Source of the DNA: an uncultured Bacilli bacterium
GTDB taxonomy: Bacteria > Bacillota_I > Bacilli_A > RF39 > UBA660
NCBI GenBank assembly: GCA_963931515.1
Contig: OZ007022.1
Coordinates: 882,122-946,121, forward strand
DNA length: 64,000 nucleotides
Reading direction: 5' to 3'
Under the pieces are notes generated by a model, which saw nothing but the letters and a program-made list of their open reading frames with translations, ran no database searches and was not told where the DNA came from. A program made the position numbers and the translations under genes. This document shows, piece after piece, positions 8,661 to 62,579 of the stretch (its first letter is position 1; each line of letters begins with the position of its first letter).

Positions 8661-8699
8661 TTAGCTATTTTATATAAGAACAAAATACCAAAATAAATT

Positions 8700-8812
8700 T
8701 TGGCATTAGCTTACCTCACGGTAAGCTTTTTCTACTTCACAGAAACCTAAGGCTTCTCCATAGACCAGTATCGGATGGTTGCCACCCTAATTTTTTTGTC
8801 AAAATTTATTGA
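8700..8812 (-). ncRNA. Candidate omega-RNA (reRNA) scaffold in the right end of the tnpB element
   Basis: Directly abuts the tnpB stop codon (8813-8815); two hairpins (gcttacc-tcac-ggtaagc; agaaacc-taa-ggcttct); the second locus copy keeps the hairpins through compensatory substitutions. Confidence 0.45.
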
Positions 8813-9959
8813 TTAAATAGATTGTTCAATTCCTCTCATATATATTTCTAAACCTTTAAACATTATATTAACTGCTGCATTATAATCACGTTCATGCTCT
8901 ATATGACATATTGGACATTCCCATTTTCTTATACTTAAATCTTTGACTTCCTTATTTTGATAATTACAAACATTGCATATTTGACTACTTGGATAATATC
9001 TATCTATTTGTATCAGTTTTTTATTATTCCAGTTAGCTTTATATTTAAGTACTCTAATTATTTCTGATATTGGGTTTTCATTTAAACCTTTTGCTACATA
9101 GTGATTCTTCTGCATATTTCTTACATCTAAATCTTCAGTTACTATAATGTCATTTTCGTTTATTAGTTTATTTGTTATATCATGTATCATATGTTTTCTT
9201 GCATTTCTTATTTTTTGATATAATCTTTGTATTTTTAATTTCATTTTATATCTATTTTTACTTCCTTTTTTACATCTTGATATTCCTCTTTGTAAGCCTA
9301 TCATTCTTTTTGTGTTAAGTTTTATATTATTTTCTATTTTCTCATTAAATGATGTTACTATTAAATCTTTTATCCCTAGATCTATTCCTATTATACTTGT
9401 TGGAACAAAAGATGGTCGTATTAATTCTTCGTTGGTTAAGACACTTACATAATATCTTCCTGCATCTTTTTTAATTACGGCACTTTTTACCTCACCAGGT
9501 ATAATATTTTTATTCCTATATCCTCTAATTTTTACTTCTTTTAATTTTGGTAAGGTAATTGTCTTATTTTTTAAATCTAATTTTATACTGTTATAATTAT
9601 TACCTTTATAACCACTTTTTATATTATTAGTTTTATAACTTTCATGAACTCCTTTAGCTTTAAATCTAGGATAACCACTTCCGTTATAAAATCTTTTATA
9701 AGCATCTTCTAAATTAAATAGACTATTTCGAAGTGCGCAGCTATCAACTTCTTTTAAAAATGGATATTCTTTAGAAAGTGATGGTATCAATTTAATTTGG
9801 TCATAAGCTGTTTTACTTTTGCCTGCTATCTTATATTCTTTAATTTTATCATCTAAAAAATAATTATATATAAATCTAGCGCAACCAATAGTTTTATTAA
9901 TTAACTCTTCTTGCTTTTCATTAGGATACATTCTAAATACATAACCTTTTAGTATTTTC
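8813..9959 (-). CDS. tnpB: TnpB (IS200/IS605 OrfB; RuvC-like RNA-guided nuclease family)
   Basis: MKILKGYVFRMYPNEKQEEL start typical of OrfB; C-terminal zinc finger and RuvC-III region (CNVCNYQ...WECPICHIEHERDYNAAVNI). The track ORF extends to 10030 from an upstream start; ATG at 9957-9959 is preferred. Confidence 0.8.
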
Positions 9960-10109
9960 ATAACATCACCCTCTATCATTATTGCAATCAATATATCACG
10001 AATAGTTATATTTGTAAATAGTTTTAGCAAACGTTTGTTTACTGTTCAAAAATGCACTTTCCTTATATAATAAAAAACCCACACTTAAATGTATGAGTTT
10101 AAATTTCAA

Positions 10110-18377: not shown

Positions 18378-19038
18378 TTATTTTTATATCGGTGACAGTA
18401 CCATTTTTAACGGTTATTACTTTATGAGCTACTTCGGCAACCAACGAATTATGAGTGATTACAATAGTTGTGATATGGTATTTATCACAAACTGTTTTTA
18501 AAAGTTCTAAAATTTTACTTCCTGTATCACTATCTAAGGCTCCGGTTGGCTCATCACATAGTAAGATTTTAGGGTTTTTAGCTATAGCTCTAGCGATAGC
18601 GACACGTTGTTGCTCACCACCTGATAATTGTGATGGAAAGTTATTTAATCTATGTCCTAGACCAACTTGCTTTAATATTTCTTTTGGCTTAAAAGCTTTT
18701 TTAGATAATTGACAAGCTAGTTCAACGTTTTCTAAGGTAGTTAGGTTTTGAATTAAATTATAAAATTGAAAGACAAATCCAATATCATATCTTCTATATA
18801 GTAATAAATCTTTGGCTTTAAATTTAGCAATGTTTTTACCATCAACTAAAATATTTCCTGATGTTGGGTTATCCATACCACCTAACATATTTAAAATGGT
18901 TGTTTTTCCAGCACCACTAGGACCTAGTACAACAACAAATTCACCTTCTTCGATTTCAAATGAGCAATCATCAACGGCTTTAACTGGTGTAGAACCTTTA
19001 TAAATTTTTCCAACTTTATCAAATTTTATATATGCCAT
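18340..19038 (-). CDS. ABC transporter ATP-binding protein (MacB/LolD-type)
   Basis: Walker A GPSGAGKTT, signature LSGGEQQRVAIARA, Walker B LLCDEPTGALD; RBS GGAGGG. Confidence 0.85.
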   Translation of the reverse strand: MAYIKFDKVGKIYKGSTPVKAVDDCSFEIEEGEFVVVLGPSGAGKTTILNMLGGMDNPTSGNILVDGKNIAKFKAKDLLLYRRYDIGFVFQFYNLIQNLTTLENVELACQLSKKAFKPKEILKQVGLGHRLNNFPSQLSGGEQQRVAIARAIAKNPKILLCDEPTGALDSDTGSKILELLKTVCDKYHITTIVITHNSLVAEVAHKVITVKNGTVTDIKINENPKDPKEIVW

Positions 19039-25197: not shown

Positions 25198-26053
25198 TTT
25201 CTTCTATCCTATCAAAAGTTACCCCTTTAATATAGCCATTTTTTACATCACCAATTATTAATGATATTACTTTATCATAGTCGATATTTCCACCTTTAAT
25301 TAGACAGCCTCTTTTTTTGCCTATTTCTTCGATACTTGTGACGATATCTTCATCTAGATAATCTAAATTATATCTTTCTTTTAAGATATTAGGATAATAT
25401 TTTTCTAAGGTAATTAAGATATGACAAGCAACATCAAATAAAGGTAAGGTTTCTTCTTTAATAGCTGTTAGGGCCGCTAGATTTAAAGCTTCTCTTTGAT
25501 CTAGTTTTGGCCATAGTATACCTGGGGTGTCTAGTAATTCTATTTTGTCATTTACTCTTATCCAACCAATACTTTTAGTAACTCCTGGTTTATTACCAAT
25601 ACTAGCGACTTTTTTACCAGCCAAATGGTTTATTAAGGTTGATTTTCCAACATTTGGGACACCTATTACTAATACTCTTGCTTTCCTATTTAAAAGGCCT
25701 TGTTTTTCTCTTTTTTCCCACTTTTCTTTTAAAAGTTTCTCTGTTGTATTTAAAATCTGCTTTAAATTACTATTATTTTCTAAATTAATAAGAATAACGG
25801 TATAGCCTTTACTTTCATAGTATTTTATCCATTTGTTGGTTTCATCTTTATCACATAAGTCAGCTTTGGTCATTATCATTAATCTTGGTTTATCACTAGT
25901 GTATTCATCAATATCAATTATTTTAGATGACTTAGGCATACGACTATCTACTACTTCATAAATGATATCAATGTATTTTAAATTTTCTTTGATTAATCTT
26001 TTGGTTTTAGCCATATGACCAGGGTACCAGTTAATATTTAGTTTCTCATTCAT
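25190..26053 (-). CDS. rbgA: Ribosome biogenesis GTPase A (RbgA/YlqF)
   Basis: MNEKLNINWYPGHMAKT start and circularly permuted GTPase motifs (DSRMP, VIGVPNVGKST); ATG at 26051-26053 preferred over the track's upstream GTG. Confidence 0.8.
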   Translation of the reverse strand: MNEKLNINWYPGHMAKTKRLIKENLKYIDIIYEVVDSRMPKSSKIIDIDEYTSDKPRLMIMTKADLCDKDETNKWIKYYESKGYTVILINLENNSNLKQILNTTEKLLKEKWEKREKQGLLNRKARVLVIGVPNVGKSTLINHLAGKKVASIGNKPGVTKSIGWIRVNDKIELLDTPGILWPKLDQREALNLAALTAIKEETLPLFDVACHILITLEKYYPNILKERYNLDYLDEDIVTSIEEIGKKRGCLIKGGNIDYDKVISLIIGDVKNGYIKGVTFDRIEENE

Positions 26054-26067
26054 TATAATCACTTCCT
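26019..26067. repeat. 49-bp direct repeat, copy 1 (covers the rbgA RBS and first codons)
   Basis: agttaatatttagtttctcattcattataatcacttcctatttattgttt recurs at 27109-27157 with a single-T difference. Confidence 0.8.
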
Positions 26068-26069
26068 AT

Positions 26070-26920
26070 TTATTGTTTCATTTCTAATTTCTTGTTTACC
26101 TTACCTTCTAATCGTTTTCTTTCTTTTTCAAGTTCTTTTAAACTTTTCTTAGGTGTAGGCATATCTTCGGGCATCATTCCACCAATGTCAGCAATCGCTT
26201 TTCTAACCTTTTTACCCACTTCATAATGGACATTTTTGGCATTGTATTCTCCTTGAACATTATCCCTTATAAGTTTTTGCTTCGTTTGATTGATTCTAAA
26301 CAAATTAGCTACTAGCTCATCATCATTCATATTATCTAAAATATCTTCTCTATATCGTAACTTTTTTCTTTTAAAAATGTCATCAGCTGTTTCACCATTG
26401 TATAGTCCTTTATATCCCGCATTATGAAACTCAGCCATATTTTTACTCCTGCAGATGAGGCAACTTTTTGTAAAGTATAATTACCTTGTTTTGTTAATTT
26501 TCTTTGATAAAGTCTTTTTTCATCCTCTGATAGAGAATCATATTCTTGTTCGGTGATTTCCTGCTTTCTCGTTTGAACAGCAAAATAAGTTTGACCTAAT
26601 GCGACAACTTCTTTACTTGGATCAGCATTTTGTACTATCAAATAACAAATATATCTTGATAATTTATAATCCTTAATAAATTCTTGTTTGCCTTTTCCTG
26701 TTTTTATTGGCTTGTTGATTTCAACAACCCAATCTTCATTACCATGAATACTATTATTTGCAGACATTATTGCTTTATCAATTACTTTCTTAAAATTTCT
26801 CCAATCTTTATATTCTAAAACCTTTTGCAGATCACGGGCAAGCCAATATTCGTTACCATATTCATCAATATGTTTTATATCTTCAAAAGTTTTACTAGTA
26901 TATTTATTAACAATTTCCAT
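26070..26920 (-). pseudogene. dinD: DNA-damage-inducible protein D (DinD) homologue, frameshifted
   Basis: Two overlapping ORFs (26336-26920 and 26070-26438) together align along DinD (LSRYICYLIVQNADPSKEVVALGQTYFAVQTRKQE; EFHNAGYKGLY...MPTPKKSLKELE); frames switch at the T5 run 26440-26444. Confidence 0.7.
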
Positions 26921-27108: not shown

Positions 27109-27157
27109 GTATCAAGCAGTTAATATTAGTTTCTCATTCATTATAATCACTTCCTAT
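27109..27157. repeat. 49-bp direct repeat, copy 2
   Basis: Near-identical to 26019-26067; the two copies bracket the dinD pseudogene. Confidence 0.8.
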
Positions 27158-27260
27158 TTATTGTTTAAATAGCAAAATGTATTTATCATTATTACTGCCT
27201 GTTAAATCTATTTAATTATATCATAAATTTAAAGCAAAAGAAAAAGTAGTATTTTTACTA

Positions 27261-27743: not shown

Positions 27744-27835
27744 AAAATAGACTCCTTTATAATCTTTAATATTATTATATCATACATTATCAAAAACGAA
27801 ATATTCATAGAACAAAAGTCAAAAATTATTTTAAC

Positions 27836-27945
27836 TTAGCTTACCTCACGATAAGCTTTTTCTACTTCACAGGGACCTTAGGTCCCTCCATAGACCAATA
27901 TCGGATAGTCGCTACCCTACTTTTTTACTTTGTCAAAATTTAACA
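27836..27945 (-). ncRNA. Orphan omega-RNA-like structured module (second copy of the tnpB right end, no tnpB attached)
   Basis: About 85% identical to 8707-8808; hairpin 2 differs by paired substitutions (agggacc-tta-ggtccct versus agaaacc-taa-ggcttct), hairpin 3 likewise; strand inferred from the tnpB-linked copy. Confidence 0.45.
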
Positions 27946-28110
27946 ATTGTTTTATTTTTTATTATATAATAGATTAACTACTCATTCTTAATGTTTGTTT
28001 AAATTAACCCTTAATATTTTTATATCATCACCTCATCTCTTTGATGTACTTAGCATATCACAAACATTTGTTCTTGTAAATAGTTTTTTATTTCTTACAA
28101 AGCAAATTCT
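27836..28110. mobile_element. tnpB-less IS200/IS605-derived remnant (right-end block plus internal left-end block)
   Basis: 27836-27945 matches the element-1 right end; 28025-28100 resembles element-1 9960-10040 (shared catcacc...atatcac...ttgtaaatagtttt). Confidence 0.45.
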
Positions 28111-28215
28111 TAGTATAAAAAAGGGGTGAAATAAATTTCACCCTTCACCCTAACGGGTGATTTTTTTTGCTTTAATCAAAATTTATTGGTAAAATTTAGT
28201 TTAAAGTGATGTTAT

Positions 28216-29376
28216 ATGATATTGTGTACTAGTAAAGATAAAGATTTTGAAAATTATAAAGAACGTATTTCTATTAGAAAAGTATTTTTTACTATTAAAG
28301 AAATTTTTAAAGATCATTGGGATGATTATCAAACTAAATATTCTCATATTAAAAGACGTCCTATTATCAATATTGTAATTGATAAATTTCTTAAATGTAA
28401 AACTTTTCTTCTTGGTTATTCTGTTTATAAATGTCCTATTTGTGATAAGGAAAAAGTTGTCCCTAATACTTGTAAAACTAGATTCTGTTCTTCTTGTGGT
28501 AATAAATACAATGAAGATAGAGCTATTTCTATCTTTTCTAAACTATTTAAATGGCGTCATCGTCATGTTGTTTTTACTATTCCAGAAGATTTAAGAGGAA
28601 TCTTTCAAAATAATAGAAAACTATTAAATCTTCTTTTTCAAGCTTCTGCTATTACTATTAAATATTGGTTTAAAGAAAAATACAAAAGGGACAATCTCAT
28701 TCCTGCCTTTATATCTGTCCTTCATACTTATGGTAGAGCTTTAAATTGGAATCCACACATTCATATGATTTTATTAGATGGTGGTATATCCAAAACAAAT
28801 TTTAAAAACATAGACTTCTTTTCATATGCTTCTTTCAGAAAACGATTTATGAAAGTCATTCTAGATTTATTAGAAAATGAACTTGGAAAAGATGAATTTA
28901 GACAAATCAAAAACGATTTATATCGTAGATACAAAGATGGCTTTTATGTTTACGCCCCTAAATCATTATATAAATCTATTAAAGATCTCTTAAAATATGT
29001 TTGTAGATATTTATCGAGACCTGTTATGGCTGAATCTCGTATTTTAGATTATGATGGTATCTTTGTCACCTTTTGGTATCAAAGGCATACTGATAACGTA
29101 ATTGTTATAGAAAAAATTCATGCTTATGAATTTATTCATCGATTAATTATTCATATCCCTGAACCAAATTTTAAATATATTAGATTTTATGGTGCTTACA
29201 ATAACAAAACTATTATTACTATTGATGTAGCTAAATTTATGGATAATGACAGAATTAATTTTAAAAAATCTCTAAACAAATGGCGTAATAAAATTTTAAT
29301 TAATTTTCATGTTGATCCTCTTATTTGTCCACATTGTCACGAAGAAATGGTATACTATAATAGTTACTACACGTAA
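28216..29376 (+). CDS. IS91-family (HUH, Y2) rolling-circle transposase
   Basis: N-terminal zinc-binding CPICDK...CKTRFCSSCG; HUH motif LHTYGRALNWNPHIHMILLDGG; catalytic tyrosine pair in LKYVCRYLSRPVMAESRI. Confidence 0.75.
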   Translation: MILCTSKDKDFENYKERISIRKVFFTIKEIFKDHWDDYQTKYSHIKRRPIINIVIDKFLKCKTFLLGYSVYKCPICDKEKVVPNTCKTRFCSSCGNKYNEDRAISIFSKLFKWRHRHVVFTIPEDLRGIFQNNRKLLNLLFQASAITIKYWFKEKYKRDNLIPAFISVLHTYGRALNWNPHIHMILLDGGISKTNFKNIDFFSYASFRKRFMKVILDLLENELGKDEFRQIKNDLYRRYKDGFYVYAPKSLYKSIKDLLKYVCRYLSRPVMAESRILDYDGIFVTFWYQRHTDNVIVIEKIHAYEFIHRLIIHIPEPNFKYIRFYGAYNNKTIITIDVAKFMDNDRINFKKSLNKWRNKILINFHVDPLICPHCHEEMVYYNSYYT

Positions 29377-29389
29377 CTAAGGAGGTCAT

Positions 29390-29638
29390 ATGAAACAAAA
29401 TTTATATATTAATAATTCTAATGAAGAATTTGATACTTGGTTTTATGATAATACATCTGATGATATTGAAACTACTTGTTTATCCTGTGGTTATACAGAA
29501 TTAGTCCCTGATTTTATTTATGATGAAATGTCTAGAAAAAAATACCATTTTAAAATTAGAAAAAAAGTTTCTACTTTAACTTGTCAAAAATGTGGCAAAA
29601 ATACAGCTATTCCTTCATCGTTTTTAAAAAATAACTGA
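29390..29638 (+). CDS. Small zinc-ribbon protein (82 aa) immediately downstream of the IS91-family transposase
   Basis: Two CxxC pairs (CLSCGY, CQKCGK); strong RBS AAGGAGG; followed by a hairpin terminator at 29655-29690. Confidence 0.5.
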   Translation: MKQNLYINNSNEEFDTWFYDNTSDDIETTCLSCGYTELVPDFIYDEMSRKKYHFKIRKKVSTLTCQKCGKNTAIPSSFLKNN

Positions 29639-29704
29639 TGTTATTCTTTTTGGCATGTTCATATTTTTCATCACCTATTTTTTAGGTGATTTTTTTATCC
29701 ATTC

Positions 29705-29730
29705 TATAAATGCACTTTCCTTATATATAA
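29705..29730. repeat. Second copy of the IS200/IS605-type left-end terminal block
   Basis: aaatgcactttccttatata matches 10048-10070 at the outer left end of the tnpB element. Confidence 0.5.
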
Positions 29731-29752
29731 AAAATAAGTAGAATTAATCTAC

Positions 29753-42564: not shown

Positions 42565-43485
42565 TTATTCAATTGTGTATGGATTAGACTGACTTCCATC
42601 TCCGCCTGTGATTTTGATTGATGATGAGAGATAAATGGCCGGACGAACACTATGCCCACCACCATCTACTTGACCGTAGGAGCTATTTAATGTTCCATTG
42701 TGATCTACATAGAATGCACCGTTTGTACCCGTACCATTGTTGCTCGGAGATATAGTCCACCAAATGTAACCACTAAACATCCAGGTAGTATTTCTACATG
42801 TACTATAATTATCATTTGTTAAGGAATGAGTGCCACATAAACTAATATTTGAATTTGTACGTAAATATTCTGAAGTTGTAGCTAAACCAATTTTACCATT
42901 CCATATAGTATTTCTTTCAGAATTTATGGTGTTTGCTAAGTCATCGTCATCCCATAATGTTAATCCAACTTTCCAATCATGTGCAACTATTTGATTTTGA
43001 GCTGTTGAATTTAGTCCATTATAATAAGTGCTATTTAAATATGTATTTAGTGTGGATGGACGGGTCCAATTATTTGATCCCGACCTATCCCAATATTGAT
43101 CTCCTATGCTAGCTATTCTCATTATTTTTATTGTTCCATCACATTCTACTGATATTATTCTCCAGCCGGCTGTTTCATTATTAAATGTGACATAATTATT
43201 TGGATTTTGTCCTGTAAAGAAATACCTACACTCATAAGGGTCTTTTTCTAATCCTGCGTTTTCTATTATTTCTTCAGCTGGTGTTTTGGCAATGCAAGTT
43301 GCATATAGTTCATCTATCGCTCCTTGAACATTGGTACTCTCTAAACCACTTTCACTATTATCATACGTAGTTTGATTACTTGGAAAATATGTCATGGCTA
43401 AAACACTCACACCACCACATACAATAAGTCCTGTTATATACCCAGGTAGATATCCAAATACGATTTTTTTTATTTTCTCTTTCAT
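42565..43485 (-). CDS. Secreted/membrane-anchored Cys-containing protein, paralogue A (306 aa)
   Basis: N-terminal TM anchor; conserved blocks ESGLESTNVQGAIDELY, DPYECRYFFTGQNPNNY, AGWRIISVECDG; paralogous to 61656-62579. Confidence 0.5.
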   Translation of the reverse strand: MKEKIKKIVFGYLPGYITGLIVCGGVSVLAMTYFPSNQTTYDNSESGLESTNVQGAIDELYATCIAKTPAEEIIENAGLEKDPYECRYFFTGQNPNNYVTFNNETAGWRIISVECDGTIKIMRIASIGDQYWDRSGSNNWTRPSTLNTYLNSTYYNGLNSTAQNQIVAHDWKVGLTLWDDDDLANTINSERNTIWNGKIGLATTSEYLRTNSNISLCGTHSLTNDNYSTCRNTTWMFSGYIWWTISPSNNGTGTNGAFYVDHNGTLNSSYGQVDGGGHSVRPAIYLSSSIKITGGDGSQSNPYTIE

Positions 43486-49420: not shown

Positions 49421-50071
49421 TTAATTTGTAATTTTACCTTCTTTTAAATATTTAACAATATCGACTTTTTCTTTGACATTGTTTGAGTGAGATATAATGA
49501 TAATACATTTTTTATCTTTATGAGCTAGATTTATGAAGATGTCTAAAACTTCTTCTTCGGTTTCTTTATCTAAGTTTCCGGTTGGTTCATCGGCTAAGAT
49601 AATACTTGGGTTATAAGCTAAGGCTCTAGCAATAGCGACACGTTGTTGCTGACCACCGGATAGAGTTAGAATTTTTTGACCCGCTTTTGATTTATCAATT
49701 CCAACTTTTTCTAGACATTCTAAGGCTTTTTGCTTTTTATCTTTTCCTTTATAACCACTGATATCCATTGATAAAATGACGTTTTCTAAAGCGGTTAAGT
49801 AAGGAAGTAAGTTATAACTTTGAAAGACAATACCAACATCATGGCACCTATAATAATCGTGATTTATTTTGTTTAAACTTTTACCGTTATAAAGTATTTC
49901 TCCTTCTTTATAGGTTTCTAAACCGGCCATTAGACTTAACAGTGTTGATTTACCAGCTCCACTTTTACCAAATATACCATATACTTTTCCTTCTTGAAAA
50001 TTTAAGTTTAAGTTTTTTAAAACATTGTCTCCATTTTTGTATGCGAAGTTTAAGTTTTTTAATTTTAAAAT
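49421..50071 (-). CDS. ABC transporter ATP-binding protein with no canonical start codon (candidate ATT start)
   Basis: Frame is open from the permease stop through Walker A (GKSGAGKSTLL) to the signature and Walker B, but has no ATG/GTG/TTG before the Walker A; AAGGAGG lies 7 nt upstream of ATT at 50069-50071. Confidence 0.65.
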   Translation of the reverse strand: MLKLKNLNFAYKNGDNVLKNLNLNFQEGKVYGIFGKSGAGKSTLLSLMAGLETYKEGEILYNGKSLNKINHDYYRCHDVGIVFQSYNLLPYLTALENVILSMDISGYKGKDKKQKALECLEKVGIDKSKAGQKILTLSGGQQQRVAIARALAYNPSIILADEPTGNLDKETEEEVLDIFINLAHKDKKCIIIISHSNNVKEKVDIVKYLKEGKITN

Positions 50072-61670: not shown

Positions 61671-62579
61671 AGGGTCTGACTCAGTTCCGGTTCCTGATAA
61701 TTTTAGGTCTGAGGAAAGATAGAGAACAGGAAGAATATTATTTGAAACTCTTGGAAGAGTATCATAATAAGAGCCTGTAATTGGTCCACAATATACATAA
61801 TTACTCATATTTTGAGATTTTGTCAAGGTCCACCAATATTCGTCGCTTTGGCTTACATCTAACCAACTAGTAGATTCACATGTATGATTAAAAACCGAAT
61901 TATCATAATACAAATCATATGTACCACATTCTTCTATATTAGAATTAATTCTTATATATTCACTTAATGTTGCTAAAGCAATTTCCCCATTCCATGTTGT
62001 ATTATTTTCATCATTTATTTGGTCGGCTAAATCATTATTGTTTTCGTTTAATCCTCCTATGCTAAAGTCGTGAGCAACAATTTGATTTTGAGCTGTTGAT
62101 GTTAAACTATTATAATATGTGTTGTTTAAATAAGTGTTCAAATCTGCTGGACGATTCCAATTGGTTGAATTTGAACTATCCCATGCCATACCTCCTATAC
62201 TTTCATTCCTTATTATCTTTATGCTTCCATCACATTCTACTGATATAATTCTCCAGCCGGCTTGTTCATTATTAAATGTTATATAGTTATTTGGGTTTTG
62301 CCCAGTAAAGAAATATCTACATTCATATGGATCTTTTTCTAAATCTACTTTTTCAAGCATTTGCTCTCCTGTTGTTGGTTCCTTTGTACATTCTGTATAA
62401 AGTTCATCTATTGCTTCTTGAACATTATTTGATTCTAAGCCACTTTCAGTATTACTATAAAACACTTCATTACTTGGGAATGTTATAGCAGCATATACGG
62501 CTACTCCACTTATTAAAAGTCCTCCTATGATAAAAGCGATTAAATTTGTTTTTAAATATCTCTTTATATTTTGTTTCAT
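61656..62579 (-). CDS. Secreted/membrane-anchored Cys-containing protein, paralogue B (307 aa); last codons supplied by the RIT repeat
   Basis: Same conserved blocks as paralogue A; ends ...DPYTLS* where the final codons lie in the RIT repeat; the displaced native end (YTIE*, plus terminator) sits at 58262-58314. Confidence 0.55.
   Translation of the reverse strand: MKQNIKRYLKTNLIAFIIGGLLISGVAVYAAITFPSNEVFYSNTESGLESNNVQEAIDELYTECTKEPTTGEQMLEKVDLEKDPYECRYFFTGQNPNNYITFNNEQAGWRIISVECDGSIKIIRNESIGGMAWDSSNSTNWNRPADLNTYLNNTYYNSLTSTAQNQIVAHDFSIGGLNENNNDLADQINDENNTTWNGEIALATLSEYIRINSNIEECGTYDLYYDNSVFNHTCESTSWLDVSQSDEYWWTLTKSQNMSNYVYCGPITGSYYDTLPRVSNNILPVLYLSSDLKLSGTGTESDPYTLS

Follow-up and report, generated by a model that had tools for sequence, protein, structure and literature searches.

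A young IS91-family insertion sequence beside an old TnpB relic in a gut Bacilli genome, and the ends it shares with TnpB-only elements

We analyzed a 64,000-nucleotide stretch of contig OZ007022.1 from an uncultured member of the Bacilli (hereafter the window; G+C content ~28%). An earlier note, made from the sequence alone, had flagged positions 27836-29732 as a composite in which IS200/IS605-type ends bracket an IS91-family transposase and a zinc-ribbon open reading frame (ORF). Here, we report that two distinct mobile elements lie next to each other in the flagged region. One is an old relic of a TnpB/omegaRNA element, 306 bp long; the other is a young IS91-family insertion sequence (IS) of 1,612 bp. 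The local structure is an ordinary tandem insertion (Table 1). Most TnpB genes lie in transposase-less elements, and the usual assumption is that a Y1 TnpA encoded elsewhere moves them. Comparison of ends leads us to think it likely that the element encoding the Y2 transposase is the autonomous partner of TnpB-only elements, and the finding probably exposes a new TnpB-transposase partnership. L-numbers below denote retrieved contigs or loci that were compared with the window; L022 is the window's intact TnpB-only element, element 1.

Table 1. Coordinates of the IS91-family element, the relic, element 1, and their parts in the window
Feature	Position	Strand	Description
IS91-family IS	28116-29727	+	1,612 bp; strain-polymorphic
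Upstream ("ter"-like) end of IS	28116-28160	+	TAAAAAA (28116-28122), hairpin 2 GGGGTGAAATAAATTTCACCC (28123-28143), hairpin 1 TCACCCTAACGGGTGA (28145-28160), then T-run
Candidate transposase-gene promoter	28167-28195	+	TTGCTT-N17-TAAAAT; read from sequence, putative function
Y2 HUH transposase gene, IS91 family	28216-29376	+	386 amino acids
Zinc-ribbon accessory ORF	29390-29638	+	82 amino acids; CxxC...CxxC
Subterminal hairpin of IS	29670-29690	+	ATCACCTA-TTTTT-TAGGTGAT plus T-run; likely terminator of both IS genes
"ori"-like terminal motif	29712-29727	+	GCACTTTCCTTATATA; conserved end downstream of transposase gene
Target heptamer of IS	29728-29734	+	TAAAAAA (TTTTTTA on tnpB-sense strand); flank, originally the relic's own left-end-flanking motif
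tnpB-less relic of TnpB/omegaRNA element	27810-28115	-	306 bp; by blastn against full-length tnpB elements L026-L028 and L022
Relic right end, omegaRNA scaffold	27810-27942	-	hairpin 1 GCTTATCGTGAGGTAAGC, hairpin 2 GTTAAAATAATTTTTGAC, terminus ...TTTTGTTC
Filler replacing tnpB in relic	27943-28010		68 nt
Relic left end, variant B	28011-28115	-	promoter, ribosome-binding site, dead start codon (ATG to ATA)
Retained tnpB promoter of relic	28052-28080	-	TTTACA-N17-TATGCT; now faces orphan omegaRNA scaffold; putative function
Element 1, intact TnpB-only element	8678-10070	-	1,393 bp; no transposase gene
Element 1 tnpB	8813-9961	-	382 amino acids
Element 1 right end	8678-8812	-	terminus ...TTTTGTTC
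Element 1 target heptamer	10071-10077

Strain contigs covering the locus were found via the exact sequence of the LepB protein, whose gene adjoins it. The gap between lepB and a flavodoxin-like gene is 396-397 bp in five of these contigs (L013-L016 and L021) versus 2,009 bp in the window, and the IS and the relic are both present in L012 and seven similar places. The shorter contigs hold the whole relic without the IS, indicating that the IS is a discrete, strain-polymorphic unit at the outer edge of the relic and not inside it. The empty site reads ...CTTAGTA^TAAAAAATAAGTAG, where the caret marks the junction (a longer reading is ...CAAATTCTTAGTATAAAAAATAAGTAGAATTAATC), and at the occupied site of the window ...CTTAGTA is followed by the element (TAAAAAAGGGG...1,612 bp...CCTTATATA) and then by TAAAAAATAAGTAG. 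The insertion made no target duplication, and the IS sits immediately 3', on the tnpB-sense strand, of the TTTTTTA that flanks the left end (LE) of the relic. The register of the IS is ambiguous by up to 7 nt, with TAAAAAA present at both junctions. The relic is fixed in the population but the IS91-type element varies from strain to strain, and the span 27836-29732 therefore does not form a single unit. The earlier note had proposed comparing related genomes, and had offered as one of its readings that an IS91-like element inserted into a tnpB-deleted derivative. The comparison recovered the empty site, with the relic present and the IS absent, and so bears this reading out in essence but not in its geometry.

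The IS is young and recently active. An identical Y2 protein, seen in 107 index blocks, is encoded at four distinct sites in the species, beside the genes for a DUF2779 protein, FtsK, a DnaB-domain protein, and LepB, and the IS occurs without the relic at the three other sites and in other genomes. The left junction is constant over the four sites (ATAAAAAA^GGGG). The right junction reads ...CCTTATATA-TAAAAAA at three of them (L031 and L032 among these) and ...CCTTATATA-CAAAATA at the fourth (L030), and junction heptamers also differ in other genomes (L001 and L003). Because they differ between copies, the heptamer beside the conserved motif is target DNA, and the one beside the palindrome belongs to the element. 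On the plus strand, the target is (T/C)AAAA(A/T)A; the junctions, at least 15, are all A/T heptamers, with no GTTC or CTTG among them. The IS91 members that have been studied typically use a GTTC/CTTG target; this may not be a defining trait of the family as a whole.

When one genome per species was scanned with the protein as guide, 11 IS91-type loci were identified, all in uncultured low-G+C gut Bacilli. By blastn, homology between the window and the copies in other genomes starts at 28115-28117 and stops at 29734; it excludes 27836-28114, and the flanks are unrelated. The left junction was xTAAAAAA^GG(G/A)(G/A)TGAAATAAATTTCA... in the six copies in which it was read, and the other end was ...GCACTTT(C/A)CTTATA(A/T)A followed by an A-rich heptamer in all nine copies read. 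The terminal block is kept in other-genome copies whose proteins are 59-89% identical. Because these copies keep the same end without a TnpB neighbor, the terminal block at 29708-29727, which the earlier note had assigned to a TnpB element, is the IS91-type element's own end. The upstream end is likewise kept (L001-L004, L008, L029-L033, L050, L083, L109, L129, and L142), and the position of the subterminal hairpin holds a hairpin of variable sequence in every IS copy. The terminal motif GCACTTTCCTTATATA is nearly invariant across Y2 elements whose proteins are 48-100% identical, and it is also found at the LE of tnpB elements whose TnpB proteins are 42-88% identical to that of the window.

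Both genes that the earlier note had read in the IS are real. The transposase matches the Pfam domains Zn_Tnp_IS91 (E = 1.3e-22) and Y2_Tnp (E = 2.2e-33), and it scores 274.6 bits against the NCBIfam equivalog transpos_IS91 (cut-off, 125), covering model positions 1-355 of 356. All 11 homologues compared (63-100% identity) retain the H181-I182-H183 motif, Y261 and Y265 (YVCRY), and the zinc cysteines without change, and, by analogy with Y249 and Y253 of IS91, we take Y261 and Y265 to have the catalytic roles. The best plasmid-borne relatives of the protein are ~35% identical. No sequence relative of it was found among solved structures, and protein-guided scans of viral contigs for TnpB and Y2 gave no matches. 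The zinc-ribbon ORF, with its two CxxC pairs, lies beside the Y2 gene in metagenome copies at 36-80% identity (tblastn) and presumably belongs to the machinery of this IS91 subfamily; that its product is a DNA-binding cofactor or regulator is a guess. A CxxC...CxxC ORF also follows the 33-35%-identical IS91-like transposases of Enterococcus faecium plasmid pSRR24 (L154, 2441-2640), where it overlaps the transposase stop codon in another frame and is annotated only in part, and of Bacillus wiedmannii plasmid p135158 (L155, ~2450-2700). The GCACTTTCCTTATA motif was absent from the Enterococcus and Bacillus plasmid copies read, which gave no help in defining the ends.

Element 1 encodes a close relative of the ISDra2 TnpB (8H1J; E = 1.5e-69). 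Its TnpB matches Pfam HTH_OrfB_IS605, OrfB_IS605, and TNB and scores 288 bits against NCBIfam guided_TnpB (cut-off, 100), and the D-E-D triad is intact in the alignment with ISDra2-like TnpB (GIDLG, TEDLD, and ERDYNAA). No tnpA was found within element 1. The anatomy of tnpB elements was read from five independent copies (element 1, L023, L026, L027, and L028) and the relic. On the tnpB-sense strand, the LE flank is a hairpin followed by TTTTTT(T)AT, and the motif TTTTTT(T)A(T) is present in all independent tnpB copies at the place where the transposon-associated motif (TAM) would sit. The LE itself comes in two variants. Variant A (TATATAAGGAAAGTGCATTTTTGAAC; element 1 and L023) matches the end of the IS91-type element over its outer ~29 nt, and variant B (ATACTAGGAATTTGCTTTGTAAAA) is found in L026-L028 and the relic. 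A promoter (TTTACA-N17-TATAYT) comes next, and tnpB is followed by the scaffold, two hairpins, and (T/C)ATTTTGTTC, beyond which the flanks diverge. When 17 right ends (REs) were aligned, compensatory double changes were seen in 15 of the 21 predicted pairs, supporting an omegaRNA-type structure. Searching the whole window with Rfam returned only tRNAs above the gathering thresholds, so that no curated omegaRNA family fits, and a permissive Rfam scan of 27780-28230 gave only two sub-threshold small RNA matches.

The relic, whose boundaries were set by the five independent tnpB-element copies, is complete at both ends, old, and fixed in the population. We recognized its retained promoter from the sequence itself and from the corresponding LEs of L022 and L026-L028. 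The stretch 28088-28115, which the earlier note had passed over as a gap, is the complete LE terminus of variant B. We also considered this terminus as a "degenerate" terminal block and rejected that assignment, as it is a distinct variant common to the full-length tnpB elements L026-L028.

The REs of tnpB elements (e.g., 8678-8705, minus strand) finish in an AT-rich hairpin plus UUUUGUUC, which resembles a terminator located precisely at the expected start of the omegaRNA guide. Every tnpB RE ends in GTTC, matching the cleavage tetranucleotide of IS801 and IS1294 (PMC13181058), which we treat as a curiosity and not as evidence. At L023 (1480-2030), the RE flank of element 1 is joined to a different LE flank, with Transposase_mut and PDDEXK_2 genes upstream; either the tnpB copies have recombined or the assembly is chimeric. 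One strain (L157, 2095-3582) has an IS66-family DDE transposase beside a 112-amino-acid gene where the window has tRNA-Gly and element 1.

We scanned metagenome contigs with the left-end motif TTTTNNNNNTATAAGGAAAGTGC, which gave at least 120 loci. The 120 matches listed were classified, and the counts and identities given for each class refer to them. The motif stood upstream of tnpB on the same strand in 28 (17 full length), at the end of a Y2 plus zinc-ribbon element in 18, and in miniature tnpB-less elements (left end, scaffold, and GTTC) in 2; it was followed by host-like genes in 25, the contig ended too soon to classify in 34, and 13 were probable chance matches. In the tnpB class, the motif was ~85-200 nt (in some, ~380 nt) upstream of the matched gene start where this was in reach, and TnpB identity to that of the window was 33-88% (42-68% for full-length matches). 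Y2 identity in the Y2 class was 48-79%. The 28 tnpB-linked LEs leave no room for tnpA, and no Y1 TnpA was found among the 120 matches by tblastn with one IS200-type query, a search of limited sensitivity.

From these comparisons, Y2 and TnpB-only elements share the left-end motif (T)TATAAGGAAAGTGC, an RE module of two hairpins and a T-rich tail, and apparently the target, which is a hairpin followed by TTTTTTA. Every tnpB RE consists of the scaffold, hairpin 1, hairpin 2 (variable and self-complementary), and (T)TTTGTTC, after which the flanks diverge. Y2 upstream ends consist of hairpin 1, a GCGA linker, hairpin 2, and TTTTTTA. A covariance model of the Y2 upstream end was abandoned because MAFFT placed hairpin 1 in inconsistent columns, and we used an explicit descriptor with a random control instead. 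The strict descriptor (two hairpins plus tail) fitted at the boundary of 10 of 17 tnpB ends and 11 of 12 Y2 ends, compared with 2.5% of 20,000 random positions, and the hairpin-2 loop was TTTA in 7 of the 10 tnpB ends and all 11 Y2 ends that fitted. The 40 nt upstream of the target T-run had a mean folding energy of -5.8 kcal/mol versus -2.9 kcal/mol in controls (p = 4e-14), indicating that the target resembles an intrinsic terminator and also the element's own upstream end. The other reading offered in the earlier note, that ends had been reused around different cargo, fails for 27836-29732 itself and holds at the family level, where the left-end motif, the right-end module, and apparently the target are common.

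The loci with host-like genes (L036, L044, L049, L087, L089, and L093 among them) have the left-end motif just upstream of the gene, often with a TTGACA-N17-TATAAT promoter, and no right end was detected. By reading, the genes encode SufS-like, HtpG-like, UvrA-like (935 amino acids), and kinase-like (267 amino acids) proteins, and rplS-lepB is also among them. These left-end-only loci could be truncated relics or could reflect one-ended mobilization; they are compatible with one-ended events and not diagnostic of them.

If the shared ends reflect a shared enzyme, the Y2 transposase would cut single-stranded DNA after the hairpin and T-rich signal at its own upstream end and, as IS91 does, would join the element to the 3' side of a similar signal in the target. 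Transposase-less tnpB elements would be its non-autonomous partners, moved in trans, and the TAM would then equal the T-rich target heptamer of the transposase. The target heptamer stays intact at the LE flank of a resident element, so new copies could land there and tandems would be expected, such as the one in the window. Deletions within such tandems would leave tnpB elements carrying the end of a Y2 element. The RE terminus of the tnpB elements, GTTC and not the TAM-like TTTTTTA, may stop TnpB from cutting its own occupied site. We lean only slightly toward the broadest form of this proposal, in which a diverse TnpB/omegaRNA clade in low-G+C gut Bacilli consists of non-autonomous partners of IS91-family ISs, not dependent on Y1, with a TAM that doubles as the target and a self-protective GTTC end.

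Exchanged ends and a further tandem are consistent with this proposal. The tnpB elements L067 and L073 match each other at 96% identity over 1,454 nt but differ in their left flanks, showing that a tnpB element bearing a Y2-derived end has reached at least two sites. The 243 nt inward of their left-end boundary match the Y2 element L083 at 92-94% identity and take in the 3' part of the zinc-ribbon gene. A deletion in a tandem of a Y2 element followed by a tnpB element would yield exactly this structure. A second tandem is present in the same species, where the Y2 element L029 is inserted directly against a variant-B left end. At ~1823-1908 of L029, a 608-amino-acid DUF2779 gene is immediately preceded by a variant-B LE-like sequence that has a promoter and a ribosome-binding site; this sequence may be a left-end relic that now serves the host as a promoter.

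Several points weigh against a partnership between the Y2 enzyme and the TnpB-only elements. The link, including the proposed mobilization in trans, is drawn from shared ends. The left-end motif was itself the criterion by which the metagenome loci were sampled. The two classes differ only in the last bases of the RE, ...TTTTTTA in Y2 and ...TTTTGTTC in TnpB elements, but this difference is systematic, and the shared RE hairpins could serve an omegaRNA function in TnpB elements instead of the transposase. No empty site was recovered for tnpB elements, including element 1 (look-ups with neighboring proteins gave occupied sites or contig ends), so the tnpB cut points rest on comparing paralogous copies. 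Each exact TnpB protein occurs at a single site in the species, the copies are 85-93% identical, and they look old and fixed. Most of them carry LE variant B (TACTAGGAATTTGC), whereas all Y2 elements found by protein carry variant A. Finally, the related genome L028 has an IS200-type Y1 transposase gene (897-1322) 1.2 kb upstream of a tnpB element. We rejected this gene as the mobilizer of the tnpB elements, since its hairpin ends are unrelated to theirs.

These points bear on the strongest alternative, that the shared ends are only historical. Here, the ends would have been captured by recombination, a Y1 TnpA elsewhere would move, or would have moved, the tnpB elements, and the Y2 enzyme would act only on its own copies. 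The kinship of the TnpB to that of ISDra2, a member of a Y1 element, fits this explanation, as do the Y1 gene in the related genome, the contrast between old-looking tnpB copies and young Y2 copies, and the lack of a Y2 element matching LE variant B. However, the motif and the RE module are kept across TnpB proteins down to 42% identical to that of the window and Y2 proteins down to 48% identical, which argues for continuing selection on both. In addition, the one Y1 element seen has unrelated ends, the tnpB-linked LEs leave no room for tnpA, tblastn with one IS200-type query found no Y1 gene among the 120 matches listed, and the element with the Y2-derived end has moved to at least two sites. 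The LE, judged by eye, is a linear motif without an RE-like hairpin, an asymmetry as in IS91 and Helitrons and unlike Y1 elements. We therefore consider a purely historical origin of the shared ends unlikely, and a working partnership with the Y2 enzyme remains our preferred reading.

Much less probable is that a single composite transposon spans 27810 or 27836 to 29734, with the TnpB-type RE and the terminal block as its ends and the Y2 and zinc-ribbon genes as cargo. IS91-family elements can skip their upstream end and mobilize adjacent DNA (PMC13181058). The DNA beside the upstream end of the IS is a TnpB relic finishing in a similar hairpin and T-rich signal, and L067 and L073 demonstrate that chimeric elements of this general kind exist. 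However, 27836-29732 does not behave as one unit: the relic stands alone in five contigs, the IS stands alone at the other sites and in other genomes, and no second copy of the 1.9-kb unit was found in the species-level scan, the protein look-up, or the metagenome matches listed.

We give still less credence to insertion of the IS91-like element inside the left end of a tnpB-less element at a GTTC-type target, which would have split that end into an internal block (28025-28100) and a terminal block (29705-29730). The appeal of this model lies in three sequence blocks that recur in element 1 and the flagged region in the same order and orientation, as the earlier note had observed; element 1 also has GTTC just inside its terminal block. 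Pairwise alignment confirmed the recurrence, at 87% identity for the right-end block (27836-27926 versus 8706-8796, with compensatory differences in a stem, AGAAACCTAAGGCTTCT versus AGGGACCTTAGGTCCCT), 70% for the internal left-end block (28000-28087 versus 9938-10025), and exact identity for the terminal-block 20-mer AAATGCACTTTCCTTATATA (10050-10069 and 29708-29727). In the empty-site strains, however, the LE already finishes in a complete terminus, ...CAAATTCTTAGTA^TAAAAAA, and the terminal block is absent. This terminus belongs to variant B, as in the full-length tnpB elements L026-L028. Together these two observations refute the model. Both in other genomes and at other sites, the terminal block accompanies the Y2 element. 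The insertion site reads ...GTA^TAAAAAA and not GTTC, and GTTC is not conserved in the related left ends of metagenome loci, which read GAAT there. That the blocks are chance matches in AT-rich DNA, a concern at ~28% G+C, can be dismissed, since shuffled controls predict 0.00 and 0.03 occurrences of a right-end 37-mer and the terminal 20-mer, respectively, where two exact copies of each were observed, and the block sequences recur in more than 100 independent loci in other genomes and metagenomes.

The IS is a divergent member of the IS91 family. Like IS91, IS801, IS1294, and ISCR, it encodes a Y2 HUH transposase with an N-terminal zinc-binding domain, and it leaves no target duplication, as seen here by comparing empty and occupied sites. 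It also resembles them in having a specific target that abuts the end downstream of the transposase gene and an upstream end composed of a target-related cleavage-site sequence plus a subterminal palindrome (PMC13181058). A small accessory ORF is a further likeness (IS91 has orf121), although here it is a zinc ribbon downstream of the transposase gene. The element differs from the family in the distance of its protein from even the best plasmid relatives, in its small size (1.6 kb), and in its target, a hairpin plus TTTTTTA rather than GTTC/CTTG. It also shares its ends with TnpB/omegaRNA elements, which was not reported for IS91 in the literature searched.

Element 1 resembles ISDra2 and the TnpB-only (IS1341-type) elements of the IS200/IS605 family in its typical TnpB, structured omegaRNA-type RE, and LE-flank motif at the TAM position, and the relic is a tnpB-less miniature of the same kind. 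In contrast to IS200/IS605 elements, no Y1 TnpA accompanied these ends among the matches listed, the LE is a linear conserved motif and not a hairpin resembling that of the RE, and the ends, and apparently the target, are common with IS91-type Y2 elements.

The closest parallel is eukaryotic. In Chlamydomonas, non-autonomous Helitron2 elements carrying Fanzor1 (CRe-1, 2, and 3; Bao and Jurka, 2013) integrate after TTTT and leave no target duplication (PMC3627910). They are alike in that a TnpB-family nuclease is found on transposase-less elements with the ends of autonomous Y2 HUH transposons, and in the subterminal hairpin at one end (PMC3627910). They differ in their RepHel fusion transposase, and that work did not include omegaRNA or TAM analysis; common descent is not implied. 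Among prokaryotes, a 2023 survey described TnpB with Y1 transposases, serine recombinases (IS607), tyrosine integrases, DDE transposases (IS630-type), and Asgard Cas1 (PMC10691335). The non-Y1 associations among these show that TnpB is open to partners besides Y1. They are in cis within one element, whereas the pairing proposed here would act in trans, and an IS91-family enzyme is absent from that list (PMC10691335). In the literature searched, no IS91-type enzyme was reported as the partner of a prokaryotic TnpB.

If the partnership holds, TnpB would for the first time be paired with a Y2 rolling-circle transposase in a prokaryote, which would give bacteria a counterpart of the Fanzor-carrying Helitrons and add a third HUH-type system to the list of TnpB partners. 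It would also offer a testable explanation for the mobility of abundant gut-bacterial TnpB elements, with a predicted TTTTTTA-like TAM. For annotation, the locus illustrates that target-preserving tandems can be misread as composite elements.

Other repeats in the window were also noted. A 41-nt perfect direct repeat (26038-26078 and 27126-27166) flanks a gene with a Bro-N domain (26336-26920). This region varies between strains, the protein having 194 amino acids in the window and L012 and 283 amino acids in L013 and L015, where other genes follow. Two further, unrelated repeat pairs lie at 42977-43276 and 62068-62367 (300 nt, 77% identity) and at 18495-18626 and 49531-49662 (132 nt, 73% identity).

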